Assembly (NCBI GenBank): GCA_028821235.1
Contig: JAPPGV010000128.1
Span: forward strand, 53,401 to 117,400
Length of the DNA: 64,000 nucleotides
Reading direction: 5' to 3'
Source of the DNA: a bacterium
GTDB taxonomy: Bacteria > Actinomycetota > Acidimicrobiia > Spongiisociales > Spongiisociaceae
The translations under genes were made by a program, and so were the position numbers. Positions 16,400 through 62,028 of the stretch are shown here, one piece after another (the stretch's first letter is position 1; every line of letters begins with the position of its first letter). The notes beneath the pieces are model-generated. The model had not been told where the DNA came from. It searched no databases and was given only the letters and a program-made list of their open reading frames with translations.

Positions 16400-16404
16400 T
16401 AACC

Positions 16405-26687: not shown

Positions 26688-26849
26688 GCGGACCGCAGTG
26701 TACTACCGGCGCCCGTGCCGGCCCACGGACCCGGCTGTGACATCTCACCCGCCACGGTTGGTCGAGGTAACGGATACGACCGACCGGCACTCGGACCGGA
26801 CGGACAGGCCGTATCATCCCGCGGACAGACCGCTACTCCGGACCGATCC

Positions 26850-29261: not shown

Positions 29262-29413
29262 GGCGCGGCCAGATTACATATCGCCAACCCCGGCCGGTAA
29301 CGCACTTCAGAATCTGCCTGACCCGGTGGTAGCGGTGGAGTTTGTCAATTATATAAGGTTACAAATGGTAAGTTTCGCCAGAGAGATCTGTCAATTAGAA
29401 CTAGGATCAAGGT

Positions 29414-38722: not shown

Positions 38723-39934
38723 TCAAGCAGCGTGGTGACGCGAGGCGCGGAGACGCATAGAGCGGACCGTGTCCGCGACCTTGGAGACCTCGGCGAGGAT
38801 CTCGTCGGGAGGGCCGGAGAGTTCCACGGCCACGACCTCCAACCGCTTGCCGACGTGCTTGATCGTGTGGCTGATCGGGTTCTCTTCGCCCTGGGCGTAG
38901 ATCAGGAGCCCGCTGGGAAGGTCGGCCGCGATCGTGTAGGCGAGCAACTGGTACAGGTCGGCGTTCGGGATGCCGTAGTCCGTCTTCTTGTACTTGATGT
39001 CACCGACGAATACGCAGCGGCTTCCCTCCCACCACGAGATGTCCGGCTTGAGCCGTATCCGGTCGCCGGCCAGCCACATCCGACGACCCGATGCGCCCTG
39101 CGGGAAGTCTCGCCCGGTAACTCGCAGGGCTTCGTGAAGAGCCGTGACCATGAAGTCCTCGAACACCTTGTTCATGTCCACCAGGAAGGACGAGGACCGC
39201 ACGCCGCCGCGGCTGAACTCGATGGAGGTTGAACGGAGTATCAGTTGCGCGAGCCGGATCGCCGGTTCGTAGTGGCGATTCAGGCGGTTGAACGAGAAGT
39301 CGGGGATCGCGCCTCTCTGGTATTCGATGTCTGTGACCTGCCCCAGGACCCGGTCGAATGCCCGCAACCTCGTCCGAGCATCCCGCGACCTGATCCGCAT
39401 CCGTCCGAGACGCACGATGGCGGCCTTGATGAGCCGGTTCATCTCGGTGTCCTCGGTGAAGTCGTCGTAGCTGACCTCGACCGGCGGAAAGATGCCGAAG
39501 CGATCCCGGATCTGGTCGTTGAAACGAATGCGGCCGCGCACGCCGTGCAACGCCTCCTCCTCGACCCGGTAGCCGCGGAGCAGGCCTCTGCGGAAGGCGC
39601 GGCGGACCTGCGCCACGAAGCCCGGAATCATCGCCTCGAACAGATCTGGTGCGTCACCGAACCGGAAGTCCTCCGGTCCAAACTTCTTGATGTCGAGTGC
39701 ATAGGAGATAAGGAAGAGCACGCGGTCGATGGGCAGCTTGGGACGTATCTCCAACGACAGCGTGCCTGTCTGGAGTACGCCCACCGTGGAGCCCGGAGTG
39801 AGGTCGTAGGCACCCTCCCTACCCAAGGAAGGTACGACGGTGACGGACGCACGATCAGCGAGCACGTCACGGTCCGAAGCGGATAGTTCGACAGCTTCCC
39901 GCTTCCTGTACTCCGAGAGGGTGAGTTCAAGCAT
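38723..39934 (-). CDS. mcrC: McrC-family restriction nuclease subunit
   Basis: DMNKVFEDF and PD-(D/E)xK motif KPDI...GDIKYK...DLYQLLAY. Confidence 0.9.
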   Translation of the reverse strand: MLELTLSEYRKREAVELSASDRDVLADRASVTVVPSLGREGAYDLTPGSTVGVLQTGTLSLEIRPKLPIDRVLFLISYALDIKKFGPEDFRFGDAPDLFEAMIPGFVAQVRRAFRRGLLRGYRVEEEALHGVRGRIRFNDQIRDRFGIFPPVEVSYDDFTEDTEMNRLIKAAIVRLGRMRIRSRDARTRLRAFDRVLGQVTDIEYQRGAIPDFSFNRLNRHYEPAIRLAQLILRSTSIEFSRGGVRSSSFLVDMNKVFEDFMVTALHEALRVTGRDFPQGASGRRMWLAGDRIRLKPDISWWEGSRCVFVGDIKYKKTDYGIPNADLYQLLAYTIAADLPSGLLIYAQGEENPISHTIKHVGKRLEVVAVELSGPPDEILAEVSKVADTVRSMRLRASRHHAA

Positions 39935-41615
39935 CTAGCGAATCCTGCTCCCCCACGTCTGCGGCATCTCCTCCGTCGGCGGTGGGGGTAGCTTCGCGCC
40001 GCAGCTTGTCCAAGTGGAAGTCCGGTAGCCGGTCCTCTTCGCCGAAGAACTGCTCAGCGATGTACGGAAGAACCGAGTGCTCCCAGATCAACTCGACCCA
40101 CTCTTTGTCGAGGTCCTCATCCATGAAGTGGCTCGGACCGATAGCGGTGTGACGCCGGCCCAGCTTCTGGTTAGCCAGATCCACCACCTCGGCCACCCAG
40201 GTCATCTCGGGCTTCTTCGCCTTCAGCCACCGCTCCACCAGACCTTCGATGGGTGGTTCATCAGGAAAGAACGGAGAGAAGTGGAAGCGCCTACGGAGAG
40301 CCGAGTCGACCAGCGCGATCGAACGGTCGGCAGTGTTCATCGTGCCGATGATCCGCAGGTTGTCCGGTAACGAGAACGGATCATTCGAATACTGCAAGCT
40401 GATCTTCTCATCCCGGTACTCCAACAGGAAGTAGAGCTCACCGAGCACCTTGCTCAGGTTCCCCCGGTTGATCTCGTCGATAATCAACACGAACGTCCGG
40501 TCCGGTGCATTCTTGGCCGCACGGGCGATCCGCTTGAGCGGGCCCTCTCGAAGTTCGAACCCGCCCATCCCGCCTTCGACCGGAGCGGGACGGTATCCCT
40601 CTACGAAGTCCTCGTATGCGTAGGAGGGGTGGAACTGCACCAAATCAACTCGCTCCTTGTCACCGGCGAGGTGGACAGCCAGCTTGCGGGCCACATACGT
40701 CTTTCCTGTCCCCGGGGGTCCGTAGAAGATGACCTGGCGGCGATGTTCCAGAAGAAGCACGATACGGTTCAGATACTCCACTCCTATGAACAGACTCTCT
40801 GCCAAGTCAGGCAGGGTCGTAGGCGCCCGGGGCTCGGGAGGCTCTGGAGGCGATTCTGACTGCTCTAGGATTCTCCAGATGTCGAATTCCGGTCCGTACT
40901 CCGGGGAGAGAGCGGCCCGTATCTGCACGAGTTGCCGGTCGACATCGTCGTTGGGTGCCGAGACATATTTGCTGAAGGATTTGGCGACTCTTCTTTTCGC
41001 CTGGTCCATCGAGATCGGCTCGAAGGTGTCGGGATGGACCAAGTGGAGAAGCGCGTTGCGCTGCATGTAGGCGGAATCCACCGGGACCCCCCACAGCATC
41101 TCCTTGAACTGCCAGGGGTCTCGGAGCAGGTTCTGACGCTGCCCGGAGTTCTGTGTCTTCCAACGTTCAGCGAACCGGATTAGAAACCGGATGGCCCGAA
41201 ACTGTTGGCGAGTGCTGAGGTACCAGTCGAAGCCATGCAGCGCCGCCTCCAGTTGATGGGGCAGTTGCACCGGTCGCGACGACCAGGTCAATACCTGCTC
41301 GATTCGACTTCTCTTGGTGGTGCTCCGCATCCCCCGCTCGCCGACTGCCAGAAAGTGGACATAAAGCATCTCGGCCATTAGTTCGACCACCGCGTCGTCA
41401 GCGCCCTCGAGTTGTCTTTGCAGCTTGGTCTGGAAGGAGTCGCTACCCTCATCCGCTCCCTCAACGAATCGACGACGGATCTCGTCGATCCGACGTCGTG
41501 ACCAGATCTCGGTCCCTGACGTGAACAGCGAACCGTCGCCCTCAAGAGCGGCCTCGACCCAAGCTTGCGCTGCGGCATACAACGGTTCGTACCGGCTACC
41601 TTTGAGTTTGGGCAT
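39927..41615 (-). CDS. mcrB: McrB-family AAA+ GTPase
   Basis: GPPGTGKT, VQFHPSYAYEDFVEG, IDEINR, MNTADRS (NxxD), LRRRF; overlaps mcrC by 8 bp. Confidence 0.9.
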   Translation of the reverse strand: MPKLKGSRYEPLYAAAQAWVEAALEGDGSLFTSGTEIWSRRRIDEIRRRFVEGADEGSDSFQTKLQRQLEGADDAVVELMAEMLYVHFLAVGERGMRSTTKRSRIEQVLTWSSRPVQLPHQLEAALHGFDWYLSTRQQFRAIRFLIRFAERWKTQNSGQRQNLLRDPWQFKEMLWGVPVDSAYMQRNALLHLVHPDTFEPISMDQAKRRVAKSFSKYVSAPNDDVDRQLVQIRAALSPEYGPEFDIWRILEQSESPPEPPEPRAPTTLPDLAESLFIGVEYLNRIVLLLEHRRQVIFYGPPGTGKTYVARKLAVHLAGDKERVDLVQFHPSYAYEDFVEGYRPAPVEGGMGGFELREGPLKRIARAAKNAPDRTFVLIIDEINRGNLSKVLGELYFLLEYRDEKISLQYSNDPFSLPDNLRIIGTMNTADRSIALVDSALRRRFHFSPFFPDEPPIEGLVERWLKAKKPEMTWVAEVVDLANQKLGRRHTAIGPSHFMDEDLDKEWVELIWEHSVLPYIAEQFFGEEDRLPDFHLDKLRREATPTADGGDAADVGEQDSLDA

Positions 41616-41728: not shown

Positions 41729-43012
41729 TCAGGGGCCTAGGCATGCCAAAGGCACGACCGCCACCCCGTCAGGACGTTGATAGCAGTACCGGCCGCCGGT
41801 GACGACCATCAACCGGGCTAGCGTCGCCGCTCGTTCCTTAGATACGCGGTCTCTTAGCTTCAGCAACGCCGCGGACGCGCTATCGATGGAGGAGATACCC
41901 CCGAGCTTGACCTCGACGGCGATCCACCGGCCGTCTCCGGTCTCGATGATGGCGTCGGCCTCCAATCCGTAGGTGTCCCGGTAGTGGTAGACGTCGGCAT
42001 CGTGAGCCTGGGCGTAGATGCGTAGGTCACGGACGACCATGGACTCGAAGAGGAAACCGAAGGCGCCCAGGTCACTTAAGTACCGTTCCGGGCCGACTCC
42101 GAGCGCCGCCGCCGCCAGGGACGGATCGACGAAGTGGCGTTTCGGGGAGCGGATCAGGATCGTCCTAGACCTGAGATGCGTGTTCCAGGCCGGTAGGTCC
42201 TCGACGACGAACAAGCGGCTCAACGCATCCAGATAGGTCTTGACGGTGGTGCGGTCCACCGGAGTGTCGCCGCCTGTCTCCGAAGCCAGCTTCCGGCACC
42301 CCGCGGTAGTGGCCACGTTCCGAGCGAGTGACCGCAACAGGCGCATGACTCGCGTGGGACTGCGGCGGATTCCGTCCACCGCGGAGATGTCGACGCGGCA
42401 GATATCACCCAGGTAATCGCGAGTGAAGCGGCGGGCTTCGGTGATCGGCGCGCCGACCAGTCGAGGCCAGCCACCCCTGCATGCGACCTCCACGAGGGTG
42501 GTGACGCTGACGGGCGACTCCGCGGCGGGAGGTGTCCGACCCTCCAGCAACCCACCCAGGGACACGACCGGTTCGGATAGTCCGCTTTCGGTGAGCGACA
42601 TAGGGCGCATGCGGACACGACTCACCCGTCCGGCGCCCGAGTGGCGGGTGAGTTCGTCAGCCGGAACTGCGGACCCGGTGAGAATGAATTGGCCAGGCCG
42701 ACCGCGCCGGTCACACGAAGCGCGCATCAGGTGCCACAGCTCCGGGACACGCTGCCACTCGTCGAGCAGGCGGGGCGTTGCGCCATCGAGCAGGAGGTCC
42801 GGCACCTGGGAAGCGATGTCCCAGAGATCGGGGCGTTCCTCCAGCATGATCTCGCTCCGGGCGAAGCGCTGACCGGTCCAAGTCTTGCCGCACCCCTTCG
42901 GACCTTCGATCAGCACTGCCCCCGCGGAGCCCAACGCCACCGGAACCTCGGCGTCTACGATTCGATCCAGATACACCCGCTCTGGAGTGGCGTAGCCTGG
43001 ATCTGCGAGCAC
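41729..43012 (-). CDS. AAA_14 ATPase + DUF4143 protein
   Basis: GPKGCGKT, LDEWQ, ILTGS, C-terminal EAD..IAVEVK. Confidence 0.85.
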   Translation of the reverse strand: MLADPGYATPERVYLDRIVDAEVPVALGSAGAVLIEGPKGCGKTWTGQRFARSEIMLEERPDLWDIASQVPDLLLDGATPRLLDEWQRVPELWHLMRASCDRRGRPGQFILTGSAVPADELTRHSGAGRVSRVRMRPMSLTESGLSEPVVSLGGLLEGRTPPAAESPVSVTTLVEVACRGGWPRLVGAPITEARRFTRDYLGDICRVDISAVDGIRRSPTRVMRLLRSLARNVATTAGCRKLASETGGDTPVDRTTVKTYLDALSRLFVVEDLPAWNTHLRSRTILIRSPKRHFVDPSLAAAALGVGPERYLSDLGAFGFLFESMVVRDLRIYAQAHDADVYHYRDTYGLEADAIIETGDGRWIAVEVKLGGISSIDSASAALLKLRDRVSKERAATLARLMVVTGGRYCYQRPDGVAVVPLACLGP

Positions 43013-43559: not shown

Positions 43560-43780
43560 CCTGCACAGGTACTTACCCCCGTATGAAGGCACCAGCTTCA
43601 GTCGGCGTCGAGCCTAATCCCTACGTCGGCGAGACAGTGAGGTCAGTACCGCTCGCTCTCACGCATCTACCAGGGCCTCCTCCCTGAGAGGTTTCGGCTG
43701 TGCCGAGTTGGAAGCTCTACGGATGCACCTTCGCCCGCCGGAAGGCCAACCTGCTGGGGTGCAGCACGCCTCTTCCCTTT
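43560..43780 (-). ncRNA. Possible structured leader with glycine-riboswitch-like motifs upstream of ridA
   Basis: Minus strand reads GCGAAGGTGCA (43734-43724), AAACCTCTCAGG (ending 43683), then GAGAG-CGAG..CTCG-CCGACG (43660-43624). Partial match only. Confidence 0.25.
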
Positions 43781-43807
43781 ATCTCACAATCACGATATGA
43801 TGTCCCT

Positions 43808-44167
43808 ATGACAACTAAGATACGGTATTACAACGTCACCGGACGGGAATACCTCACCAAAGTACACACCTACCTGGCCGAAGACGACCTGTTACAGGCT
43901 TCGGAGAAGGGCTGGGGTGCTGCTGCCCAGATGGTCAAAAGCGTCGCCGAGGCCGGGGGTTGGCCCCACAATGGCCATCACGAGCTCTGGCGCGCTGTCA
44001 ACCTAATTGTCGACCAGACCGGGGATCGCGACATACGAACCGCCTTCGCAGCGGCCGCAGCCCTGCACACCAACTTCTACGAAGGCTGGCTGCCGCGCGA
44101 GACCGTCGAGCACTACCTCGCCCAGGTCGACGAACTGGTGTCGAAGTTGGAGGGCCTTTCGTCCTAG
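43808..44167 (+). CDS. PaREP1-family (HEPN-like) protein
   Basis: QASEKGWGAA and LHTNFYE motifs; start ATG 43808. Confidence 0.8.
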   Translation: MTTKIRYYNVTGREYLTKVHTYLAEDDLLQASEKGWGAAAQMVKSVAEAGGWPHNGHHELWRAVNLIVDQTGDRDIRTAFAAAAALHTNFYEGWLPRETVEHYLAQVDELVSKLEGLSS

Positions 44168-44243: not shown

Positions 44244-45770
44244 TCAAGCGACCGGGCCTACCACGGCCTCGACCGCATCCACCAGGGCCTCCCGCTTGAG
44301 AAGTTCCTCAGCTGCGGCGAGTTCCGGTGACAGGATGCGATCCGGGCCTGGTCCTGGCACGCAGCTTCGCAACAGCCTGACGGCCGCGGCGGTGCCGGCC
44401 GCCGGCTCCAGGGGTGCGCGGAGTTCCACGGCCCTTGCGGCGGTGACCCACTCGATTGCCAGGATACGGCGTACGTTCTCGATCACCAGGCGGAGCTTGC
44501 GGGCCGCGGACCAGCCCATCGAGACGTGATCCTCCTGCATGGCGGAGGTGGGGTAGGAGTCGACCGAGGCGGGGGCGGCCAGGCGCCGGTTCTCGGCGCA
44601 CATGGCGGCCGCGGTGTACTGGCCGATCATGAGACCGCTGTCGACGCCGGGATCGTCCGCGAGGAAGGGTGCCAGGCCATGCGAGCGGTTGTGATCGAGC
44701 AGGCGGTCCAGGCGCCGCTCGGCGATCGCCCCCACCTCGGCCAGGGCGATCGCCAGGTAGTCGGCGGCCAGAGCGACCGGGGCCCCGTGGAAGTTGCCGC
44801 ACGACTCGACCCGTCCGTCCGGCAGGACCATCGGATTGTCGATGGCAGACTCGAGTTCCCTCCAGGCGACCTCCGTCACGAAACCGAGCGTGTCACGAGC
44901 CGCGCCGTGAACCTGCGGCGTGCAGCGCACCGAGTACGCGTCCTGAACCCGGAGGTCGCCACTGCGGTGACTGGCGACGATCGGGGATCCGGCCAGGATG
45001 TTGCGCAGGTTGGCAGCGCTCGTCGCCTGTCCCGGATGTGGCCTCAGTGCCTGAAGGTCGGCTGCGAATGCCCGGTCGGTGGCCAGGAGACCCTCGACGG
45101 TGAGCGCCGCCACGATGTCGGCGTCGGCGAGCAGGAACTCGGCATCGTATATCGCAAGGCAGAGCATTCCCAGGATGCCGTCGGTGCCGTTGGTGAGCGC
45201 CAAGCCCTCTTTCTCGGCCAGCACCACCGGCGCGATCCCCTCTCGCGCCAGGACATCGGCGGCGCGGGTGGATCCGCCGCCGGTAACCACCTCACCCTCA
45301 CCCATGAGGACCAAGCCGACGTGGGCCAGCGGGGCCAGGTCCCCGCTCGCCCCGAGGGAGCCATACTCCGGCACCCTGGGGACGATCCCGGCATTCAGCA
45401 GGCGGACGAGACCCTCGGCGACTACCGGCCGTGCGCCCGAGTACCCGAGCGCCAAGGTACGAGCCCGCAGGAACATCATGGCCCTGACCACTTCGGTTTC
45501 CACAGGAGGCCCCATCCCCGCTGCGTGGGAACGGATCAGCGAACGCTGCAGGTCGGCCCTTCGTTCAGCGGGAATCGTGGTGGTCGCCAGAGCACCGAAC
45601 CCGGTCGTGACTCCGTATGCCGGGTCACCCTCCGCCAGGTGTTCGACGATGGAGCGAGCGCTGCTCATGCGCTTCAACGCTGCATTCGTAAGGCGTACTT
45701 CCACCCCTCGGCGGGCAACATCGACCACATCCGAAAGGGTCACTCCAGGGCCATCAAGACTCAACGTCAT
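44244..45770 (-). CDS. hutH: Histidine ammonia-lyase
   Basis: YGVTTGFG, RSHAAG, MIO-forming GASGD, QDAYSVRC, QEDHVSMG. Confidence 0.95.
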   Translation of the reverse strand: MTLSLDGPGVTLSDVVDVARRGVEVRLTNAALKRMSSARSIVEHLAEGDPAYGVTTGFGALATTTIPAERRADLQRSLIRSHAAGMGPPVETEVVRAMMFLRARTLALGYSGARPVVAEGLVRLLNAGIVPRVPEYGSLGASGDLAPLAHVGLVLMGEGEVVTGGGSTRAADVLAREGIAPVVLAEKEGLALTNGTDGILGMLCLAIYDAEFLLADADIVAALTVEGLLATDRAFAADLQALRPHPGQATSAANLRNILAGSPIVASHRSGDLRVQDAYSVRCTPQVHGAARDTLGFVTEVAWRELESAIDNPMVLPDGRVESCGNFHGAPVALAADYLAIALAEVGAIAERRLDRLLDHNRSHGLAPFLADDPGVDSGLMIGQYTAAAMCAENRRLAAPASVDSYPTSAMQEDHVSMGWSAARKLRLVIENVRRILAIEWVTAARAVELRAPLEPAAGTAAAVRLLRSCVPGPGPDRILSPELAAAEELLKREALVDAVEAVVGPVA

Positions 45771-45780
45771 CCAAACACCC

Positions 45781-46488
45781 TTACCGTGGCAGGAGGGCGA
45801 GCGAGGTCTCCACAGCGGCTTCTACTACGGCCTCGGTGATGAGATCGAGGCGATCTCCGACCATCCGCTCGGCGGGGCCCAGCACCGAGAAGGCGCCTGC
45901 GATCCCCATCGACCACTGGATGGGTGCGACCACCGCGGTCACGTCCGGTTCGATAGCGCCGGTATTGAAGAAGGGCGCAGGGCGCTTGCCGAACCGGATG
46001 TCCTTGCTCGTCAGAGCCTCCCCCACCGCCGTACCTTCGATGGGCACCGACTTGCCCACCCATCCGACATGGCGGATGGCTCGCCGGCTCTCGACCGTAG
46101 CGATGTAGACGGCCTCGGTCCCGTCCCTGACCGCCAGGTAGGCGGACTCTTCGGTCACCTCCGCCAAGTGCTGAAGGGCCGGCTGGGCCGCCGCGGTCAG
46201 TCGGGCGTACGGACCCGACTGGAAGGCGGCGAGCGCTATCCGCACGAAACTCGGCCCGACCGAATACCTACCCAGGTCATTTCGCACCAGATAACCATGG
46301 CCGGTCAGGACCCGAAGGTGGCGAAGGGCGGTGCTGATCGGTATGCCGGTCTCCGCGGCAGCGTCGGTCAAGGCGACCGATCCCCCGGTCACCACCGTGT
46401 CGAGCAGGCGAAGGACCCTCCCCGCGGACCGCGATGCATGCAGCGTCGACCCGCCTCGGCTTGTGGATTCTGTTCGTGTGACGGTCAC
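45781..46488 (-). CDS. IclR-family transcriptional regulator (probable Hut regulator)
   Basis: N-terminal HTH (SAGRVLRLLD...PISTALRHL) and IclR C-terminal domain (GTAVGEAL); sits between hutH and hutU. Confidence 0.88.
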   Translation of the reverse strand: MTVTRTESTSRGGSTLHASRSAGRVLRLLDTVVTGGSVALTDAAAETGIPISTALRHLRVLTGHGYLVRNDLGRYSVGPSFVRIALAAFQSGPYARLTAAAQPALQHLAEVTEESAYLAVRDGTEAVYIATVESRRAIRHVGWVGKSVPIEGTAVGEALTSKDIRFGKRPAPFFNTGAIEPDVTAVVAPIQWSMGIAGAFSVLGPAERMVGDRLDLITEAVVEAAVETSLALLPR

Positions 46489-46640: not shown

Positions 46641-48332
46641 ATGACGGCAAACAGGAAACCCAGCACAGGCGCGCCGACCGGAGGTGTCCGCGCTCCCACC
46701 GGCACCGGTCTGACCTGTCGCGGCTGGCCGCAGGAAGCCGCCTTCCGCATGCTGCAGAACAACCTCGATCCCGAGGTCGCCGAACGTCCTGACGACCTCG
46801 TGGTCTACGGCGGTACCGGCCGCGCGGCCAGATCGTGGGACGCGTACCGCGCCATGATCCGGACCCTCACTTCCCTCGCCGGCGACGAGACGATGCTCGT
46901 CCAGTCCGGGAAACCCGTGGGAGTCCTCCGCACCCACGAATGGGCACCGCGAGTGTTGATCGCAAACTCCAACCTCGTCCCCGACTGGGCCCACTGGGAC
47001 GAGTTCCGGCGCCTAGAACACCTCGGACTGACGATGTACGGGCAGATGACGGCCGGGTCGTGGATATACATCGGCACCCAGGGGATCCTGCAGGGCACCT
47101 ACGAGTGCTTCGCCGCCATCGCGCGGAAGCGATTCGGCGGTTCCCTGGCCGGAACCCTCACCGTCACCGCCGGGCTGGGAGGGATGGGTGGCGCCCAACC
47201 CCTGGCCATCACGATGAACGACGGGGTGGCCCTGTGCATCGAGGTCGACCCCGACCGGGCGGAACGCCGCGTCGAGACCCGGTACCTCGACGTCGTGGCC
47301 CACAGCTACGCGGACGCCCTGCGCCTCTGTACGGAGGCAGTTGCAGCCCGCCGGCCCCTTTCGGTGGGGTTGGTCGGGAACGCGGCGGATCTGGTGCCAC
47401 AACTCCTGGCCGACGGAGTCGCCGCCGACATAGTGACCGATCAGACCTCCGCTCACGATCCGCTGACCTACGTCCCCAATGGCCTGTCTCTCGACGAGGC
47501 CACCGAACTCCGGGACGCCAAACCCGACGAGTACGTCGGGCGCTCCCGCGCCGCCATGGCTGCCCACGTCGAGGCCATGGTCGGCTTCCTCGACGCGGGG
47601 GCGGAGGTGTTCGACTACGGAAACAGCCTGCGGGCCGAGGCCGAACTCGGCGGATACGACCGGGCGTTCGCCTATCCGGGTTTCCTGCCCGCCTACATAC
47701 GGCCCCTCTTCTGCGAGGGCAAGGGACCATTCCGCTGGGTGGCGCTCTCGGGTGACCCGGCAGACATCGAGGCAACCGACCGGGCTGTACTCGAGGAGTT
47801 CCCCGACGACGAGGGCCTCGCACGTTGGATCAGGCTGGCCGGGGAAAGGGTTGCTTTCCAGGGGCTTCCCGCCCGGATCTGCTGGCTGGGCTACGGCGAG
47901 CGCCACCGGCTGGGGTTGCGGTTCAACGACATGGTCCGCTCCGGCGAGTTGAAGGCCCCGATTGTGATCGGGCGCGATCACCTCGACTCCGGATCGGTCG
48001 CCTCGCCCTACCGCGAAACCGAGGACATGGCGGACGGCAGCGATGCCATCGCAGACTGGCCGCTTCTCAACGCGCTGGTCAACACGGCCTCGGGCGCAGC
48101 ATGGGTCAGCATCCACCACGGTGGAGGGGTCGGGATCGGCCGGTCGATACATGCCGGACAGGTGTGCCTCGCCGACGGCACCGACCTGGGAGCCGAGAAA
48201 CTGGAGCGGGTGCTTCTCAACGATCCAGCGACCGGAGTCATGCGCCACGTGGACGCCGGTTACGAGTTGGCCGCGCGGGTGGCCTCCGACCGGGGAGTAC
48301 GCGTACCGATGGCGGAGACGAGACCTCGATAG
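46641..48332 (+). CDS. hutU: Urocanate hydratase
   Basis: [39 protein letters not shown]. Confidence 0.96.
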
Positions 48333-49873
48333 TGGCCGCACGGCGTCGACGCGGAGGACGGCGAGCCCGGGTAGCGAAGCGCGGACCCTCGAACCCGCAG
48401 CGGGCCTTCCGCCAGCCCCGCCTCCCCTGGGAGCCGGTAAGGGCGGTTTCCGCCGACGAACTCGAAGCCATCCACGAGGCGTCCCTGAAGGTGCTCCGCG
48501 ATGTCGGGATGGACATCCTGCACCACGACGCCAGGGCGATGCTCCGTCGGGAGGGCGCCGAAGTCGATCCCGACTCCGCTCGGGTGCGGTTCGATCCCGG
48601 CATGATCACCGAACTGGTCGGCTGCGCGCCGGGCGGGTTCACGCTGCACGCCCGCAACCCTTCCCACCACGTCCACCTCGGAGGACGCTCGGTGGCGTTC
48701 ACAGCTGTGGCCAGCCCACCCAACGTCTCCGGCCTCGGCCGTGACCGGCGCGCCGGCAACCGGGAGGACTTCAGACAACTCATCCGCCTTAGCCAGCATC
48801 TGAACGTCGTCCACCTCCACGGTGGCTACCCGGTCGAGCCCACCGACGTCCATCCATCCGTCCGACACCTGCACGCCACCTTCGACCTGCTTACCCTCAG
48901 CGACAAGGCCATCCACACCTACAGCCTCGGACGGCAGCGGACCCTGGACACCATCGAGATGGCCCGCATCGCCCGCGGGATACACGAGGACGACCTCGAC
49001 ACCCAGCCGTCGATCTACACGATCGTCAACACGTCGTCCCCACTCCGCCTGGACACCCCCATGATCGAGGGGATCCTCGAGTTGTCGATCCGGAACCAGC
49101 CGGTGGTGATCACCCCGTTCACGCTGGCCGGGGCGATGGCGCCGGTGACCATCGCCGGGGCTCTCGTACAGCAGAACGCGGAGGCCCTGGCAGGAATCGC
49201 GCTCACCCAGGCCGTTCGCAGGGGAGCACCGGTGGCATACGGGGGGTTCACATCCAACGTCGATATGCAATCCGGGGCGCCCGCCTTCGGCACCCCCGAG
49301 TACCTTCAGGCCGCTCTCATAGGCGGCCAACTGGCGCGACGCTACCGCCTCCCCTACCGATCCTCGAATGCCAACGCCTCCAACGCGGTCGACCTCCAAG
49401 CCACCTACGAGAGCATGTTCTCGCTCTGGGGCGCGGTCATGGGGGGAGCCAACCTGATACTGCACGCGGCCGGATGGCTCGAAGGCGGGCTCAGAGCGTC
49501 GTTCGAGAAGATGGTGCTGGACGCCGATCTGCTGCAGATGATCTGCGCGGCATTGGAGCCGCCAGTTACCGACGAGGGCGCGCTGGCGCTCGAGGCGATC
49601 GCAGATGTGGGCCCGGGAGGTCACTTCTTCGGGACCGCCCACACCCAAGCCCGTTACCGGGAGGCCTTCCATGCTCCGCTGCTGTCGGATTGGAGCAACT
49701 TCGAGTCCTGGGAGGAGGCCGGCCGGCCCGACCCCGCCCAGCGAACGGTTTCGCTAGCTCGCAAGTTCCTCGACGATTACGAGCAACCACCTATGGAGCC
49801 GGCCGTCCGTGAGGAACTGGAGGAGTTCGTGGGCCGCCGCGTCGCCGAGGGCGGCGTAGCGACCGACTATTGA
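48332..49873 (+). CDS. mttB: Trimethylamine methyltransferase (MttB) superfamily protein, non-pyrrolysine
   Basis: NTSSPLRLD, YGGFTSNVDM, HAAGWLEGGL, SFEKMVLD; no in-frame TAG; GTG overlaps the hutU stop. Confidence 0.88.
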   Translation: MAARRRRGGRRARVAKRGPSNPQRAFRQPRLPWEPVRAVSADELEAIHEASLKVLRDVGMDILHHDARAMLRREGAEVDPDSARVRFDPGMITELVGCAPGGFTLHARNPSHHVHLGGRSVAFTAVASPPNVSGLGRDRRAGNREDFRQLIRLSQHLNVVHLHGGYPVEPTDVHPSVRHLHATFDLLTLSDKAIHTYSLGRQRTLDTIEMARIARGIHEDDLDTQPSIYTIVNTSSPLRLDTPMIEGILELSIRNQPVVITPFTLAGAMAPVTIAGALVQQNAEALAGIALTQAVRRGAPVAYGGFTSNVDMQSGAPAFGTPEYLQAALIGGQLARRYRLPYRSSNANASNAVDLQATYESMFSLWGAVMGGANLILHAAGWLEGGLRASFEKMVLDADLLQMICAALEPPVTDEGALALEAIADVGPGGHFFGTAHTQARYREAFHAPLLSDWSNFESWEEAGRPDPAQRTVSLARKFLDDYEQPPMEPAVREELEEFVGRRVAEGGVATDY

Positions 49874-49883
49874 AAGGAGTCGA

Positions 49884-50561
49884 GTGCAACCTGTCCGTTA
49901 CAGCCCTGTGCGTCTGCGTACCGACCTGAACCCCGCCGGCCATCCCTGCGCCGAGGTCCGGCATTACGAGGCGGATCTTGCCGTCCTCAATCGCCTGCTG
50001 GCAGACCTGCGCGTCCTACTTCTGCAGACCAAGACCGGCGAAGCGACTCTCCGTCCCTACCAGCTCATCAACTGGCACGAGGACGGACTGAGACGCAGGG
50101 TCGTGATGTGCGATCCGGCAACCCTCTTGACGGGTGCGGATGTGCTGATCGTCGGCTTCATCGGGAACCGGCGTTCGACCGAAGAGGCCAACCAGATCGA
50201 CGAGTTCGACTTCGACGTGATCTCCGAGTTCCGCCAGTACCCCGGGATACTCAGCTACAGCTCCATGGAGCTGATCCCGAACCAGTGGGCGAACCTGGTG
50301 GTTCACCAGGAGGTCGGGGACCGGGAAGCCTGGCGACACAGCGCCATTCACATAGAAGCAGCCGAGGATCTGTCTCCCCGGGTGTTCCACAGCGTCCGCA
50401 TCCACAACGGGCGGGTACGCGGAGGCCCGGTCGGAGACGGCAGCGTGATCGTTGAGGTCTCCAAGTATTGGGACTACGACTCGGACCCGATGTGGCATGC
50501 CGTCCGGACGATCCCGGGGGGAGTCACGACTGCGGACCACCCTCGGTGGAACCCGCGATGA
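49884..50561 (+). CDS. Hypothetical protein (possible dimeric alpha/beta-barrel-like C-terminal half)
   Basis: AAGGAG SD; stop overlaps the def start (ATGA). No family motif recognised with certainty. Confidence 0.7.
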   Translation: MQPVRYSPVRLRTDLNPAGHPCAEVRHYEADLAVLNRLLADLRVLLLQTKTGEATLRPYQLINWHEDGLRRRVVMCDPATLLTGADVLIVGFIGNRRSTEEANQIDEFDFDVISEFRQYPGILSYSSMELIPNQWANLVVHQEVGDREAWRHSAIHIEAAEDLSPRVFHSVRIHNGRVRGGPVGDGSVIVEVSKYWDYDSDPMWHAVRTIPGGVTTADHPRWNPR

Positions 50562-51127
50562 CAGTTCGCCGGATCCTCTCGGTGGGCCACCCGACGTTGC
50601 GAGTACGGGCGGCGGAGGTAGCGAACGAGGACATCCCGACCCCGGCCATCCAGGAACTGATCGACGATCTCATCGACACGATGCGCCACGCCAACGGCTC
50701 GGGGATCGCCGCCAACCAGATTGGAGAGACGGTCCGGATCATGGTGATGGAGGTCGACGAGAACCCACGCTACCCCTACAAGCCACCCATCCCCCTTACG
50801 GTGGCCATCAATCCACGGTTCGAGCCACTCGACGACGAGACGGTCGTGATCAACGAGGGGTGCCTGTCCGTGCCATTACGGGGCGAACTGAAACGGTCGG
50901 TGAACCTGCGGGTTCGTTATGCCGACCGCGATGGGCTCCACCACCGACAGGTACTCCGGGGCCTGACAGCCGGGACCTGGCAGCACGAGTGCGACCACTT
51001 GGACGGGGTGCTGGTAGTCGACCGGATCGATCCGAAGACCCTCAGCACCTGGGAGGAGTTCGACCGGCATCACCGCGACGCTTTCGTAGAACGTATCAAC
51101 CGGTTCGTGGCCGAGGTCGGGTCATGA
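50558..51127 (+). CDS. def: Peptide deformylase-fold metallohydrolase
   Basis: GSGIAANQ, EGCLS and QHECDH motifs; start ATG 50558. Confidence 0.9.
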   Translation: MTVRRILSVGHPTLRVRAAEVANEDIPTPAIQELIDDLIDTMRHANGSGIAANQIGETVRIMVMEVDENPRYPYKPPIPLTVAINPRFEPLDDETVVINEGCLSVPLRGELKRSVNLRVRYADRDGLHHRQVLRGLTAGTWQHECDHLDGVLVVDRIDPKTLSTWEEFDRHHRDAFVERINRFVAEVGS

Positions 51128-52491
51128 CCAGCCGCTACTGGTGCGAACTGGCCTGGCTCGGAGGTGCCCAAGCCACCCCGGGGGTCGTGATCGAAGTGGC
51201 AGGGGGTCGGATAGTCTCGGTCGCGTCCGGCCGGGCCACTGCGCCCCGCAGCGCCGTCGAGCTGCCCGGACTGACCATCCCGGCCCTGGCCAACGTCCAT
51301 AGCCACGCGTTCCACCGGGCGCTGCGGGGCCGGACGCATGGCGGGAGCGGAACCTTCTGGACCTGGCGCGACCTGATGTACGGGGTGGCGGCCAACCTGG
51401 ATCCCGACAACTACTACCACCTCGCCCGGGCCACCTTCGCCGAGATGGCCCTGGCAGGCATCGGGGTGGTCGGCGAATTCCACTACATCCACCACAGGCC
51501 CGGCGGGGGCCGCTACGACGACCCCAACGCGATGGGGCTCAGCCTGGTAGCCGCGGCGCGGGACGCCGGGATCCGCCTGACCCTGCTCGACACGCTCTAC
51601 CTTCACGGAGGCTTCTCCTCCAAGTCGGGGTCGGGGTATGCGCCTCCCGGTCCGGAACAGGCCAGGTTCAGCGACGGATCCGTGCGTGCCTGGACGGAGC
51701 GGGTGGCGCGGTTGACGGCCGGTGTCTCCGGGTCGCTCGCGAAGGTAGGGGCGGCGGTCCACTCGGTGCGCGCCGTCGACCCATCCTCGATCGAAACAGC
51801 GGCCCAATGGGCGGGCGAGAACGGCCTGCCACTCCACGTTCACGTGTCCGAACAGCCGGACGAGAACCGGGCGTGCCTGGATGTGCACGATCGGACCCCC
51901 ACCGCGGTGCTGTCCGATGCGGGCGCGCTAGGGCCCGACACCACCCTTGTCCATGCCACCCACCTTTCCGACCACGACATCGCCCTGATCGGCGAGGCCA
52001 GGGCAACCTGCTGCATCTGCCCCACGACCGAGCGCGACCTGGCAGATGGGATCGGTCCCAGCCGGAGTCTCCTCGATGCCGGGGCCACGCTGTGCGTCGG
52101 ATCCGACTCCCACGCGGTGATAGACATCCTGGAGGAGGCTCGCGCGGTGGAGCTGGGCCAGCGAGTCCTGACCAACCGCCGCGGGCTCCACTCGAGCCCG
52201 GCCCTCGCCTCGATCGCCACCGCCAACGGATACAGGGCGCTCGGATGGCGGGACGGAGGAGTCATCGGACCGGGCCGCCTCGCCGATTTCACCACCGTGG
52301 GGCTGGACTCGGTCCGCCTCGCAGGTATCGACGCCTGCAACGCCCTGGACGCGGTGATGTTCGCCGCCTCCAGCGCCGACGTGAACCACCTCGTCATCGG
52401 CGGTCGGCGGGTCGTAACCGGAGGCGCCCATGTATCGATCGACGTTCCGGCCGAACTGGAATCTTCGATCGCCAAGGTGGTGGCGACGTGA
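51124..52491 (+). CDS. hutF: Formimidoylglutamate deiminase
   Basis: [49 protein letters not shown]; ATG 51124 overlaps the def stop. Confidence 0.92.
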
Positions 52492-53687
52492 CTGTGGTGA
52501 TCGACAACATCGGGGAGTTGGTCACCAATGATCCTGCAGCCGGGACGGGACCTCTCGGGATCATCGAGAACGCGTCGGTGGTGACCGACGGTGATTACGT
52601 CTTGGCGGTCGGGCCTGCGGGCGCGGTAGCGGACGAGCGCCTCGACGTAGGGGGTAGGTGCGTTCTGCCCGGCTTCGTCGACTCCCACACCCACCTGGTC
52701 TTCGCAGGAGACCGGGCGGAGGAGTTCACGCGGCGGATGGCGGGTGAGGACTACGACGGGGGTGGGATCCGGGTCACTACCGAGGCCACCAGGACAGCAG
52801 GCCGGCCGGCGCTCCGGGCGGGTTTGGCCCAGCACCTGGAGGAACTCAGGCGGGCCGGTACCACCACCGTGGAGATCAAGTCCGGCTACGGATTGTCGGT
52901 CGAGTCAGAGGTCACGACCACGTCGTTGGCGGGAGAAGTGACCTCCGAGACCACCTTCATGGGCGCTCATGTCGTCCCGACCGAGTACCTGGGGCGGACC
53001 GACGACTACGTCGACCTGGTGTGCGGACCGATGCTGCAAGCTGTTCGACCCCATGTCCGCTGGATCGACGCCTTCTGCGAGGAAGGCGCCTTCGACGTGG
53101 ACCAATCCAGGGCGGTTCTAGAAGCGGGCCGGGCTGCCGGCCTCGGTCTGCGCCTTCATGCCAACCAACTGGATTACGGCCCCGGCGTGCAACTCGGCGT
53201 TGAGATGGGCTGCGCGTCCGTCGATCACTGCACCTACCTCTCGAATGGAGACATCGAGGTCCTCGCCGCGGGCGACACCGTGGCCACCTTCCTTCCTGCC
53301 GCGGACTTCTCCACCCGCCAGCCGTACCCCGACGCACGTCGGGTCATCGACGCCGGAGCGACCGTGGCGATCGCCTCCAACTGCAATCCCGGATCGAGCT
53401 ACACGACCTCCATGTCCTTCTGCATCGCTCTGGCGGTACGCGACATGAACATGACAATCGACGAAGCGATCGCCGCCGCCACCACCGGCGGGGCAGCAGC
53501 CCTGCAACGGCGCGACATCGGGAGGCTCGCTCCCGGTGGCCCGGCCCACCTCACCATCCTCGACGCACCGAGCCGCCACCACCTCGCCTACCGCCCTGGC
53601 GTGCCGCTGATCTGGCGGACCCTCGGCTCCGACTACGTCCAACCGTCCACCGAACACGAATCCCGAAGCAGAAAGGCAAGCCCATGA
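52488..53687 (+). CDS. hutI: Imidazolonepropionase
   Basis: [37 protein letters not shown]; GTG 52488. Confidence 0.93.
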
Positions 53688-55141
53688 ACCTCCCCAACCC
53701 CACCGGACACAATCAGTGGTACCCGTTCGCCAACCGTCCCCTACCTCCCGAGGTCGACGGTTGCCTGGTCAACCCGCCGGCGATACCGGTCTTCGACCCT
53801 ATGCCCCTGCCGGGGAGCGCCCGGTTCGTGGTGGTCGGCGCCGGTGTCCACGGGCTGTCGAGCGCTTACCACCTGGCCATGTATCTTGAGCGATCCGGCA
53901 AGGGCAAGGGCAGCGACGTCGTCCTGATCGACAAGCAAGGTCCCGGAGCCGGAGCCACGGGCCTGGCCTGCGGATGCGTCCGCAACCTCTACATGACCAA
54001 CCAGCTGCACGCCATCCTGCGGGCCAGCGTGGAGGTCTGGGAGTCCGACCCAGTGAACTTCGGCTTCCAGCAGGTCGGTTACGTGTCGGTCGGCGAAGCG
54101 AACCAGTATGAGGACTACATCGAGCTCCACGCCTCACAGGCGGCCAGCGGCTACCCATCGGACCTCTACACGGGATCGGACGCCCATGCCTTCCTGACCA
54201 AGCTGTGGCCTGACTTCAAGACCGAGAACTGTGACGTCGTGCTCCACGAGCACCGCTCTGGATACGCCGGGACGCACATCGCGGTGTGGGGCCTCGACCA
54301 GAAGTGCCGCCAGTGGGGCGTGCAGCGTGTCTACGGGACCACGGTCACCGGCTACCGCCGGGACGCATCCGGGTCCGTGACGGCGGTCGAGACGGACCAG
54401 GGATCGATCTCGTGCGAGCAGGTCGTGGTCGGTGCGGGCGCGTGGACACCCACGCACTGGGAGTGGCTCGGCGGCCCGTCACACCTCGACGTCGTGTATC
54501 CCGACGGTCACACCGAGGAACAGATGGACATGTGGACCTACTGGCGCCTCCTGGAAGGTGAAGTACTCCTCCCCGAGGGCGTGGACTTCCGTACCGCCCA
54601 GTACCGGGACTCACCGGTCCTGCACGTGGAACTGCTGGACACGCCCGTCTACGGCGAGGACGGGACGATGATCAAGGACCACACCTACGTGTACACCCGC
54701 TACGCGGCCGAGCGAGTCGGTGCTCCGGGCCTCCAGGGAGGGACGATCCCCATCAAGATCGGTCCTCGGGCGGAGGTCGAGCCCTACGGGCACCTCAACG
54801 ACCTCTACCAGGCGGAAGACTGGTTCGCCGACTACTACTGCTCCGCCCTCGGCATGCTCTTCAAGCGGCTCGAGAACCTGAGGCCCTACTTCAAGGAGCG
54901 GCGGAACGGAGGAATCGGAGCCTTCACACCGGACAACGTGCCGGTGTTCGATCATGTCGCCGACAACGCGTGGGTGATCGCCGACTCCAACCATGGGTTC
55001 AAGATGATCGGGGTGGGCAAGCTCACGGCTCAGATGCTGGTCTACGGCGACAAGCCCGACGAACTGAAACCGTTCACCCTGGACCGGTACCGGACCGGCG
55101 GGACCTTCGGAGACAGGAACTCGAACAGCCCGTGGGTCTAG
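53684..55141 (+). CDS. FAD-dependent oxidoreductase (DAO / sarcosine oxidase beta-like)
   Basis: GAGVHG Rossmann motif, [23 protein letters not shown]; ATGA overlap with hutI. Confidence 0.85.
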
Positions 55142-56088: not shown

Positions 56089-57723
56089 CTACGGGTCCAC
56101 CGCCGGCTCGATGCGGGCGGAAGGGCGGACCTTCTTGCCGTTCAACATCGTTCCGATCGGGGTGTATCTGACCAGGAACTGATAGCTCAACAGAAGGACC
56201 GCTGTAACCAGCGCCGAGATCATCAGGAACTTGACCTCTGCCGGAAGGTCCCAGTCGCGTACGACCGCTTGGGCGACCACCACCACCGGAAGGTGGGCGA
56301 GGTACAGCCAGTACGAGGAGTCGGAGAGGTAACGGACTCCCCGGCGTTCCCTTGGCAGCAACGCTCGAAATAGCCCGATCAGGCCGAAGCACACCCCCCA
56401 CGCGTAGGCAACCTGCAGCACCGACGCCACCAGCCAGGAGAACGCCACCTCGCCGAAGGTGACAAACAGTCCGGCGTTCACGCCCGCTGCCTGGCCTTCC
56501 CACGCGAAGTGGAGTGCCACCTCGCCGAAGGTGAAAACCAGTCCGGCAGGGAACGCGACCAGGAACGAGATCGGCAGATAAAGCCACCATCGTCCCCCGA
56601 TCGTGTCGACCAGCAACCTGCCCCTACGTCCCCGGCGCCGGTACATCAGCGCCCCGAAGGTGAAGAAGGTGGCGTAGTAGGCCAGGACGTGGGGAAGCGG
56701 AACGAAGCCGTCCGAGGTGTCGGGCCCGAAGACGGGATAGGCGCCACCCCCGCCCATGGACAGCTGCGGCACAATAGTGAGGGGGATCATCGACCACATG
56801 ACCCACCGGGGCCAGTTTTCTTGCCGAGCGCTTTGGCGGTCCCGGCGGTCCAGCGCCCAGGCGATGATCGCAAACCCTGCCACCAGCCAGAGGAGGAACC
56901 AGAGGAACCACAGGTGATAGAAACGTTGGATGGAGGATAGGTCCAGCCCGTCGGCCGAGCCGTTGCCGTCGTCCTGCTCGGCAGCGCCTGCTTCCCAACC
57001 CGGGATCTCCGACCACTCCATCCCATCGGGCAGCGGATCCCCGCCTCCGTAGGAAACCAGCAGGTCGGCCGCCTCCGCGTGGCCGAAGTGGAAGGCAACC
57101 CCGAGGGGTGTCTCCCCCTCCGAGGCGGTGGCGACGGGCGCTGGCTCCGCTCCGCGAGACAGGAGCAGGTCCAGCATCTCGGTATCGCCACCGAAGGCAG
57201 CGGCGTGGAGAAGTGTCCACCCACCCGGCTCCCCCCGGAGGTCGACATCGAAGCCTCTGTCCAGCAGTTGCTCCACCCCGGAAACATCACCGGCGAAGAC
57301 CTTGCCCCAGATGTCATCGTCCTCCACCAGCGCCGCGGGTGCGGACCCGGCCGCCCAGTCACCGACGAACGTGGTCAGCGGGACGATCGTCAACAGGCCG
57401 AGCAAGAGCGGGAGCGCCACCCGACGAAGCCGGTGGTTCAGGAGGGCGCCGAGCCCCCGGCGCTGCCACAGCAGGGCGGTGAAGAACCCGCTCATCAGGA
57501 AGAACACGGGCATCCGGAACCCATGGACGGCCCACAGGAACTCGTCGAACAGCCCGTCGAACGCCGACCTGCGGTCCTGGACCCACCACGGCGCGGGGAA
57601 GAAGGCCAGCGAAGCGTGGAGGCAGATGCCCAGCAGCATGGCGAAACCCCGCAGCGCGTCGAGGTCGTACCGGCGACGCTCCCCGGAAGGCAATGGCGAC
57701 GAAGGACGTTCCACTGGGGTCAA
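56089..57723 (-). CDS. Acyltransferase family 3 (OpgC/MdoC-like) membrane protein with inserted ankyrin repeats
   Basis: RYDLDALR, FRMPVFFLMSG, YHLWFL, SYWLYLAH; internal WTLLHAAAFGG and ETPLGVAFHFGH ankyrin-type motifs. Confidence 0.82.
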   Translation of the reverse strand: MTPVERPSSPLPSGERRRYDLDALRGFAMLLGICLHASLAFFPAPWWVQDRRSAFDGLFDEFLWAVHGFRMPVFFLMSGFFTALLWQRRGLGALLNHRLRRVALPLLLGLLTIVPLTTFVGDWAAGSAPAALVEDDDIWGKVFAGDVSGVEQLLDRGFDVDLRGEPGGWTLLHAAAFGGDTEMLDLLLSRGAEPAPVATASEGETPLGVAFHFGHAEAADLLVSYGGGDPLPDGMEWSEIPGWEAGAAEQDDGNGSADGLDLSSIQRFYHLWFLWFLLWLVAGFAIIAWALDRRDRQSARQENWPRWVMWSMIPLTIVPQLSMGGGGAYPVFGPDTSDGFVPLPHVLAYYATFFTFGALMYRRRGRRGRLLVDTIGGRWWLYLPISFLVAFPAGLVFTFGEVALHFAWEGQAAGVNAGLFVTFGEVAFSWLVASVLQVAYAWGVCFGLIGLFRALLPRERRGVRYLSDSSYWLYLAHLPVVVVAQAVVRDWDLPAEVKFLMISALVTAVLLLSYQFLVRYTPIGTMLNGKKVRPSARIEPAVDP

Positions 57724-61082: not shown

Positions 61083-61138
61083 TCGTTGACCGTTGACGGA
61101 TACAAGCCACCAGCCACCAGCCACAAGCCACTAGCTAG
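61083..61138. repeat. Degenerate 7-bp tandem repeat array (8 units)
   Basis: tcgttga-ccgttga-cggatac-aagccac-cagccac-cagccac-aagccac-tagctag. Confidence 0.65.
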
Positions 61139-62028
61139 GTTCCTTGAACAAACGACTTGGAAACCTTCGCGGCGACACCTCCTCCCCAGTAGTAGCCGAC
61201 GCTGACCTCGCCCACCTGGGAGAGCAGGCTCAATGCCTCCCAGCTCACCCAGCCGTAGCTTTTCTCCAGCCACACGGCGAGCCGGCTGAACGCTAGGCCC
61301 ACCGCTTCATCGAGCGGTCTCCCACATGCTATAGCCATCAACTCGCGATCCGTCTCGATCCGCGGCCACCGCAGTTCGATGGCCTTCTCCAGATCGATGA
61401 CGATCCGGCTTCGTGCGGGCATCTCCAGTGCGATACCGCTCACCTCGCCGGCACCCTGTGCGGCGTGACAATCCCCCAGGTATAGGAATCCACCGGGAAC
61501 GAACACAGGCAGCATGACGGTCGCCCCCGGTGCTACCTCGCGGATGTCCATGTTGCCCCCGTAGTCGCCTGCTTGAACTGTCGTCGGGGCCCCCATCGCC
61601 GGAGCACAGGCGATCAGTCCGATCATCGGGCGGTACGGGATGGTCAAGTCCTTGCTCCAGCGGATCACGCCATCCACGATCTGGCAGATTCGCGTCATAT
61701 CCGGGATTGGCGACGGGAGTGAGGTCACAACAGGCGGAGCGGGAAGTACATAAGTAGCGCACTGGCCGATAAGCGGCTCGATATCGACGATCCGCACGCG
61801 TAGCGAGTCCCCCGGTTCAGCCCCGTTCACAGCGATCGGCCCGGCCACGGGATCACTGAGCGGCAACGCCACACGGTCCCGGACGTCGCCGGGTACCCGA
61901 ACCTGCCCGGAGAACGCGTCTTCGGTCTCCACCACCACGCTGTCCCCCGGATCGATAGTCACGACAGGCTCCCGGAGTCGGCTTATCTCATAGATCAGCG
62001 GGCCCAGGCGTATGACGTGCTCGGCCAC
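61135..62028 (-). CDS. Acetamidase/formamidase family protein
   Basis: VETEDAF, DPVAGPI, GGNMD, GDCHAAQGAGEV. Confidence 0.88.
   Translation of the reverse strand: MAEHVIRLGPLIYEISRLREPVVTIDPGDSVVVETEDAFSGQVRVPGDVRDRVALPLSDPVAGPIAVNGAEPGDSLRVRIVDIEPLIGQCATYVLPAPPVVTSLPSPIPDMTRICQIVDGVIRWSKDLTIPYRPMIGLIACAPAMGAPTTVQAGDYGGNMDIREVAPGATVMLPVFVPGGFLYLGDCHAAQGAGEVSGIALEMPARSRIVIDLEKAIELRWPRIETDRELMAIACGRPLDEAVGLAFSRLAVWLEKSYGWVSWEALSLLSQVGEVSVGYYWGGGVAAKVSKSFVQGT

Follow-up and report, generated by a model that had tools for sequence, protein, structure and literature searches.

A peptide deformylase homologue in histidine-utilisation operons of Acidimicrobiia: a candidate N-formyl-L-glutamate deformylase

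A deformylase homologue in the hut operon

We analysed a stretch of 64,000 nucleotides (hereafter the window; 65% G+C) from contig JAPPGV010000128.1 of a bacterium of the family Spongiisociaceae, class Acidimicrobiia (GenBank assembly GCA_028821235.1), in which a histidine-utilisation (hut) cluster occupies 44.2–55.1 kb and includes a gene for a homologue of peptide deformylase (PDF). HutF makes N-formyl-L-glutamate, from which HutG normally releases glutamate and formate. The first-pass annotation of the window, made from the sequence alone, had proposed that the PDF homologue is a paralogue that replaces HutG. Operon linkage, rearranged gene orders, fusions to HutF and a parallel with M20 peptidases speak for this proposal, although the occurrence of the same sequence signature in loci unlinked to hut genes and the weakness of one of the pocket arguments speak against it. 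On balance, the 189-aa product of the open reading frame at 50558–51127 (plus strand) is, judging from sequence comparison, probably an N-formyl-L-glutamate deformylase analogous to HutG. This reading is favoured because hutH, hutU, hutI and hutF all score above the NCBIfam equivalog cutoffs and the window contains no hutG of the FGase type.

In the pathway proposed here, HutH, HutU and HutI would convert histidine to N-formimidoyl-L-glutamate and HutF would deiminate the latter to N-formyl-L-glutamate, which the PDF-fold protein would hydrolyse to formate and L-glutamate in the fifth step. The genes of the cluster are as follows.

44244–45770, minus strand: hutH, histidine ammonia-lyase, step 1 (PF00221, E=9e-184; TIGR01225, 658 bits against a cutoff of 539)
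45781–46488, minus strand: regulator of the IclR family, transcribed divergently from the hutU operon (matches to NCBIfam models of the IclR/PcaR type, none of which reaches its cutoff)
46641–48332, plus strand: hutU, urocanate hydratase, step 2 (Urocanase N, Rossmann and C domains; TIGR01228, 891 bits against a cutoff of 375)
~48332–49873, plus strand: MttB-superfamily methyltransferase homologue (PF06253, E=3e-189; below the TIGR02369 cutoff)
49884–50561, plus strand: 225-aa protein of unknown function, its stop codon overlapping the PDF start (ATGA)
50558–51127, plus strand: metallohydrolase of the PDF fold, proposed to be the HutG analogue of step 5, an N-formyl-L-glutamate deformylase (PF01327, 140 bits)
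51124–52491, plus strand: hutF, formimidoylglutamate deiminase, step 4, product N-formylglutamate (NF006681, 594 bits against a cutoff of 362; TIGR02022, 446 against 413)
52488–53687, plus strand: hutI, imidazolonepropionase, step 3 (TIGR01224, 341.5 bits against a cutoff of 298; GTGA overlap with hutF)
53684–55141, plus strand: DAO-family FAD-dependent oxidoreductase (PF01266, E=7e-31; ATGA overlap with hutI)

The ATGA overlap of the PDF gene with the hutF start at 51124–51127, pointed out in the first-pass annotation, can be read directly in the sequence. Similar 4-nt ATGA or GTGA overlaps are found at the junctions between the 225-aa gene and the PDF gene, between hutF and hutI, and between hutI and the oxidoreductase gene, indicating that these five genes are translationally coupled. 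The operon thus reads hutU-(mttB-like)-(unknown)-PDF-hutF-hutI-(FAD oxidoreductase).

The same annotation had noted that neither a hutG-like gene nor fmt is present in the window, and this was confirmed by two kinds of search. A Pfam scan of 48 open reading frames of the window revealed no FGase domain (PF05013), no Formyl_trans domain, no second PDF and no match to the arginase family. Likewise, tblastn searches of the window with HutG of Paracoccus, Fmt of Escherichia coli and two PDF queries returned no hutG, fmt or second def. The HutG query was the Paracoccus seriniphilus protein WP_089344273.1, which was verified as a member of PF05013 (246 bits); a plasmid match from Azospirillum (H4), considered as a source of HutG, was set aside because its genes (agmatinase, HutF-like and ArgE) do not make up a typical hut operon. 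When the tblastn searches were extended to 81 Acidimicrobiia loci, covering up to 10 kb on either side, no FGase, no Fmt and no PDF besides the hut-linked copy were detected. A second def or fmt was also sought in the supplement of an omics study of Microthrix, where none was found, and no Acidimicrobiia sequence was present among the high-GC PDF representatives from outside the clade that were looked up. Full-text literature searches returned no paper linking PDF to N-formylglutamate or to hut operons.

Catalytic motifs, fold and substrate pocket

In Pfam, the 189-aa protein matches only PF01327 (Pep_deformylase; E=5e-41, 140.3 bits against a cutoff of 22.8), and no match to PF05013, the family of FGase-type HutG, was obtained. 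The protein passes the NCBIfam model NF001159 (135.8 against 125) and falls marginally below the equivalog model TIGR00079 (102.1 against 103.95 bits). With the latter model a fusion of PDF and HutF (P0173, see below) scores 95.2, and the divergent relatives P0124, P0126 and P0127 pass. All three metal-binding and catalytic motifs, described as intact in the first-pass annotation, are indeed present in the translation of 50558–51127: G47-S-G-I-A-A-N-Q54, E100-G-C-L-S104 and Q142-H-E-C-D-H147. The catalytic and metal-binding residues are invariant in 137 sequences of the clade to which the protein belongs, as they are in 46 neighbouring PDFs, and it can therefore be argued that the PDF-like protein is a working enzyme.

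The AlphaFold (AF2) model of the protein (pLDDT 87.5, pTM 0.85) is predicted to adopt the alpha+beta fold of PDFs. In a Foldseek search against the PDB the top 50 matches were all PDFs, the best being LiPDF of Leptospira interrogans (1SV2; TM 0.83/0.91, 42% identity). The protein thus has in common with Def (EC 3.5.1.88, PF01327; LiPDF 1SV2/1Y6H) the fold, the three motifs and the metal ligands, and it also shares with LiPDF an enlarged CD loop containing N-x-R-Y-P. On the reading favoured here it would be a functional variant of a known enzyme family and not another kind of system. The predicted chemistry is likewise that of Def, namely hydrolysis of an N-formyl amide on the alpha-nitrogen of an L-amino acid: a metal held by Cys102, His143 and His147 would activate water, Glu144 would serve as the general base, and Gln54 together with the backbone of Leu103 would polarise the formyl group. 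The predicted substrate differs from that of Def in being a free N-formyl amino acid rather than a peptide, and the gene differs in lying in a hut operon (in some relatives it is fused to that for HutF), not beside fmt.

In order to define the features specific to the clade, the 137 sequences were compared with the 46 neighbouring PDFs, which included those of E. coli and Leptospira. Alignment to E. coli Def (taken from the NC_000913.3 record; mature E. coli numbering) places Ser48, Gly139 and Thr140 opposite Ile44, Ile128 and Cys129, respectively, so that the residue mapping of the first-pass annotation proved correct. The window protein does not have the residues that at these three positions contribute to the hydrophobic S1' pocket for the Met side chain in a functional Def. 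Five residues set the clade apart, being almost constant within it and seldom met in other PDFs: Gly139, Thr140, Thr164 and, in the enlarged CD loop, Tyr74 and Lys75. Equivalents of Gly139 and Thr140 are present in every clade member and in 0–1 of the 46 outgroup PDFs; LiPDF has Ile and Val there, and Gly and Thr of its CD loop are replaced by Tyr74 and Lys75. Position 48 is mostly Ala in the clade and otherwise Ser. The clade can be recognised by two motifs, N-P-R-Y-P-Y-K-P in the CD loop and A-G-T ahead of HExxH, which we refer to as the signature.

We tentatively take the isoleucine preceding motif 3 of ordinary PDFs to correspond to Thr140 of the window protein. In ordinary PDFs the hydrophobic P1':S1' interaction drives active-site closure and catalysis, and reshaping of S1' involves the Ile44 equivalent and the Ile just before motif 3 (PMC3101196). 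In the window protein, the Met-binding S1' pocket would be remodelled by Gly139 and Thr140 in place of Ile128 and Cys129 and by Ala or Ser at position 48 in place of Ile44. A glycine and a threonine at two positions of the pocket wall would fit a changed P1' side chain, and we infer that the invariant Tyr74-Lys75 pair of the CD loop may bind a carboxylate of the free amino acid.

Conservation of the PDF gene among hut genes

A homologue search with the window protein returned thousands of relatives, the top 120 of which are at least 69% identical to it; those that carry a name belong to Acidimicrobiia, including Candidatus Poriferisodalis. When GTDB species representatives were scanned for the clade motifs, at least 580 encoding loci were recovered; a plasmid collection contained no member of the clade (all matches below 60% identity). 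Complete chromosomes of Acidimicrobiia also carry the gene (OZ246890.1, NZ_OZ241968.1, OY762464.1, OZ252146.1 and OZ242187.1). Gene order was compared in the best 80 of the at least 580 GTDB loci. Nearly all of these are labelled as Acidimicrobiia (Ilumatobacteraceae, Microthrix, Poriferisodalis, Aldehydirespirator and Spongiisociaceae). Five loci with the typical hutU-PDF-hutF arrangement (L033, L036, L037, L064 and L077) carry metagenome-assembled genome labels of Poribacteria, Verrucomicrobiales or Solirubrobacterales, and these contigs are probably mis-binned or mis-labelled.

Hut genes were detected by tblastn with the hut proteins of the window in all of the 80 loci. Sequence sufficient to place hutF is available for 76 of them, and in 71 of these hutF starts no more than ~300 nt downstream of the PDF gene. 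The prevailing order is hutU-PDF-hutF-hutI. Departures from it include hutH-hutF-hutI-hutU-PDF (L072 and L074), insertion of an unrelated gene between the PDF gene and hutF (L045 and L069) and a PDF gene adjoining an apparently broken hutF (L060). The order is hutF-hutI-PDF-hutH in L088 and L089, which encode a 53%-identical member. Metagenomic loci show further arrangements, hutU-hutF-PDF-hutI(-hutH) in L138, L150, L152, L180 and L182 and hutF-hutH-PDF-hutU in L178. The PDF gene therefore stays among the hut genes although their order is shuffled, which is more than inherited synteny would account for. It is a component of the hut operon: co-directional with the other genes, overlapping or close to them, and retained across species and gene orders.

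Fusions to HutF and exchange of the HutF partner

A clean 659-aa protein in which PDF is joined to HutF (P0173/P0299) is encoded on 19 contigs, which come from independent samples of ENA, JGI and Logan. The PDF and Amidohydro_1 domains are both recognised by Pfam, and the C-terminal half passes the HutF model NF006681 (377 against 362). The gene has a neighbour carrying a Josephin domain, suggesting that the fusion is eukaryotic. A search with the 659-aa sequence identified ~17 clusters (at 90% identity) of PDF+HutF fusions, the domain coordinates of which were confirmed; among them are EukProt/MMETSP protist transcriptome proteins, one labelled "Paraph..." (taxon 36769). Every one of the fusions carries NPRYPYKP and [AS]GTxQHE. 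In several other long representatives a frameshift makes the def frame run on into hutF; although artefacts of assembly, they still report the adjacency of the two genes.

In other lineages HutF is accompanied by other hydrolases. Proteobacteria have FGase-type hutG inside hut operons, beside hutU, hutH or hutI. Oomycetes (Phytophthora, Pythium, Lagenidium and Globisporangium) possess 830–860-aa fusions of HutF with an M20 peptidase, as in the Phytophthora protein P0379 (Amidohydro_1 at 91–476, M20 at 588–851). In the actinomycete Nonomuraea (L099) an M20 gene at 7805–8998 lies between hutU and hutF and ends 3 nt before the latter. HutF thus has FGase as its partner in Proteobacteria, an M20 enzyme in Actinomycetes and oomycetes, and the PDF in Acidimicrobiia and in protists other than oomycetes. 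Since the product of HutF needs a hydrolase of formyl amides and all three partners are amidohydrolases, this exchange provides the strongest argument for a HutG analogue.

The window protein is predicted to share with FGase-type HutG (PF05013, EC 3.5.1.68) the reaction catalysed and its position in the pathway, and both proteins are encoded within hut operons. The two nevertheless belong to unrelated sequence families with unrelated folds, and tblastn with Paracoccus HutG detected nothing similar in either the window or the 81 loci. The M20 partner represents a different metallohydrolase family for which the genomic evidence is of the same kind: it takes the same slot directly upstream of hutF, and both it and the PDF are found fused to HutF in eukaryotes. 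The sole reported activity assay of an M20 protein, that of Streptomyces avermitilis (listed in SEED under COG0624 as an N-formylglutamate deformylase of 'alternative form'), was negative (PMC3223725), and the N-formylglutamate deformylase step in Actinobacteria is for this reason an acknowledged gap. The oomycete fusions and the M20 gene of Nonomuraea revive the idea of an M20 deformylase despite this assay. The arginase-family HutG of the four-step pathway (formimidoylglutamase, EC 3.5.3.8) also brings histidine catabolism to an end at glutamate; its substrate is formiminoglutamate and its product formamide, and with it HutF is not needed, whereas the present cluster has hutF.

Alternative explanations

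Several observations weigh against the assignment of the window protein as an N-formyl-L-glutamate deformylase. To begin with, the score of the protein is still that of a normal PDF, lying above the cutoff of NF001159. Of the residues that the first-pass annotation had regarded as signs of a retuned pocket, Gly139 and Thr140 are specific to the clade, but the change of Ile44 is not: the clade mostly has Ala at this position, as do 15 of the 46 outgroup PDFs, which look ordinary, so that the argument from Ile44 to Ser is weak. The 80 GTDB loci come from one class, and part of their synteny therefore reflects shared ancestry. The most divergent bacterial members of the clade, used as seeds for a scan of metagenomes, returned 80 loci, all with the signature, and only 31 of them were linked to hut genes; the remaining 49 were not, 27 of these having at least 4 kb of sequence, and the signature is consequently not exclusive to hut operons. 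The neighbours in the unlinked loci are heterogeneous, the recurrent ones being housekeeping genes (phosphatidylserine decarboxylase, TopA and GreA). P0126 and P0127, on short contigs, are also unlinked to hut genes. Finally, a crude neighbour-joining tree with resampling grouped the signature-bearing PDFs of bacteria and protists into one clade in none of 40 replicates. The genomes with unlinked loci, probably Myxococcota-like, either have dispersed hut genes or point to a wider role of the family.

In such a wider role the enzyme would deformylate short formyl peptides or free N-formyl amino acids such as N-formylmethionine and N-formylaspartate, with N-formylglutamate as one of several substrates or a minor one. 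The unlinked metagenomic loci and the failure of the neighbour-joining tree to unite the signature PDFs would be expected in this case, and one member adjoins an ACC-deaminase-like PALP gene. However, the contexts outside hut operons show no alternative conserved metabolic partner, and HutF is the sole functional partner that recurs anywhere, fusions included; moreover, hut genes need not cluster in every genome, so that a lack of linkage is no sign of a different substrate. We regard this explanation as unlikely. We consider it quite unlikely that the protein is an ordinary PDF, whether the housekeeping enzyme or a redundant second copy, which deformylates nascent peptides and has come to lie among the hut genes of this lineage incidentally. 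In favour of an ordinary PDF are the complete motifs and fold, the NF001159 and near-threshold TIGR00079 scores, the status of LiPDF, the nearest relative of known structure, as a genuine PDF that shares the CD-loop insertion, and the same-signature relatives in housekeeping neighbourhoods that lack hut genes. Yet a catabolic operon that serves one substrate and adjoins an IclR-type regulator would be an unlikely place for an essential enzyme of translation, the linkage to hut genes has outlasted several independent rearrangements of the operon, and the fusions to HutF in protists are hard to square with a role at the ribosome. Furthermore, the gene is never found beside fmt in the 81 loci, and two hydrophobic residues of the Met pocket are Gly and Thr in every member of the clade. 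A metagenomic contig of 74% G+C that does not belong to Acidimicrobiia (L135) is also instructive, as it carries a signature PDF ~5 kb from a canonical def-fmt pair, accompanied by apaG, in which def lies directly upstream of fmt:

8001–8576, plus strand: signature PDF
13287–13802, minus strand: canonical def
12309–13253, minus strand: fmt

This arrangement indicates that signature PDFs can be extra copies and not the housekeeping enzyme.

It is very improbable that the true deformylase is a different protein (the DAO-family oxidoreductase or 225-aa protein of the operon, or one encoded elsewhere in the genome), with the PDF being accessory, regulatory or non-catalytic. The window does encode other amidases, of the FmdA/AmdA family (61135–62028), cyclase/formamidase-like (17327–18157) and CN hydrolase (16345–17259) types, but none of these is conserved near hut genes in the relatives; most hut loci lack the genes for the oxidoreductase and the 225-aa protein, and the invariance of the PDF catalytic and metal-binding residues across the clade is at odds with a non-catalytic role.

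Returning to the HutG analogue, we lean towards a broader formulation. PDFs with the NPRYPYKP and AGT motifs would constitute a widespread, previously unrecognised family with members in several protist lineages and at least 580 species of GTDB, and would be the first enzymes of the PDF fold with a free N-formyl amino acid as substrate. These enzymes would supply the missing N-formylglutamate deformylase of HutF-type catabolism in Acidimicrobiia, in other bacteria and, as fusions, in stramenopile-type protists, a third independent solution beside FGase-type HutG and M20. If so, a recognised hole in a textbook pathway would be closed, as in many Actinobacteria no enzyme is known for the fifth step of histidine degradation, and the PDF fold would be extended from co-translational protein processing to the catabolism of small molecules, offering a natural case of a retuned S1' pocket. 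The annotation 'def' or 'peptide deformylase' would then probably be wrong in hundreds of genomes, and the signature family would have to be removed from counts of def paralogues and from inferences about what actinonin and other PDF inhibitors target. Fusions of HutF with PDF or with M20 represent natural constructs for studying the coupled reaction.

Accessory genes of the hut operons

The genes for the MttB-superfamily protein and the 225-aa protein lie between hutU and the PDF gene in the window and, among the GTDB loci, are found at this place only in L002 (7829–10001) and L003 (7829–9968) besides, the two loci nearest to the window; the pair is a lineage-specific insertion outside the conserved core. 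The MttB-superfamily gene has no in-frame stop codon (non-pyrrolysine), and its GTG start at 48332 overlaps the stop codon of hutU. No match to the 225-aa protein was obtained in Pfam, NCBIfam or PDB sequence searches. A link of this insertion to methylated histidine derivatives is conceivable.

The DAO-family oxidoreductase has weak NCBIfam matches of the SoxB and N-methyl-tryptophan-oxidase (MTOX)-like types. Its gene is retained in L001–L003 (in L001 at 13134–14612), L008, L011, L013–L018, L020 and L027, loci labelled as Poriferisodalis, Aldehydirespirator, Spongiisociaceae or unclassified Acidimicrobiia, and is missing from the hut loci of Ilumatobacteraceae. The IclR-family regulator keeps its position in most of the related loci, and its orthologue in L001 matches the Pfam families HTH_IclR and IclR_C.

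Many hut operons of the Ilumatobacteraceae type contain, between hutU and the PDF gene, a gene for a PhyH-family Fe(II)/2-oxoglutarate dioxygenase (PF05721), as in L029 (9177–10004) and also in L026, L031, L042, L057, L058, L061, L065, L069 and L070. This gene of ~275 codons had been suspected of encoding an FGase in some Ilumatobacteraceae, and the suspicion was dropped once its product was recognised as PhyH.

Other features of the window

Outside the hut cluster, an open reading frame at 19311–20312 encodes the reverse transcriptase and maturase domains of a group II intron (RVT_1 and GIIM). A McrBC-type restriction system, consisting of a McrC-like component (PF10117) and an AAA_5 GTPase/ATPase, is located at 38723–41615 on the minus strand and is flanked by two genes for DUF4143/AAA_14 ATPases (29326–30669 and 41729–43012). 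Three paralogous genes of the phosphotriesterase family (PF02126; 6719–7684, 8121–9095 and 13695–14618) lie among genes for thiamine pyrophosphate (TPP) enzymes, and the region 20748–29261 encodes three molybdopterin-containing large subunits of the xanthine dehydrogenase/CO dehydrogenase type together with FAD and 2Fe-2S subunits. Two further proteins are unusual for Actinobacteria: one of the PaREP1 family, described from archaea (43700–44167, plus strand), and one that joins ankyrin repeats to an acyltransferase_3 membrane domain (56089–57723, minus strand), the repeats fitting a host-associated lifestyle as a sponge symbiont.

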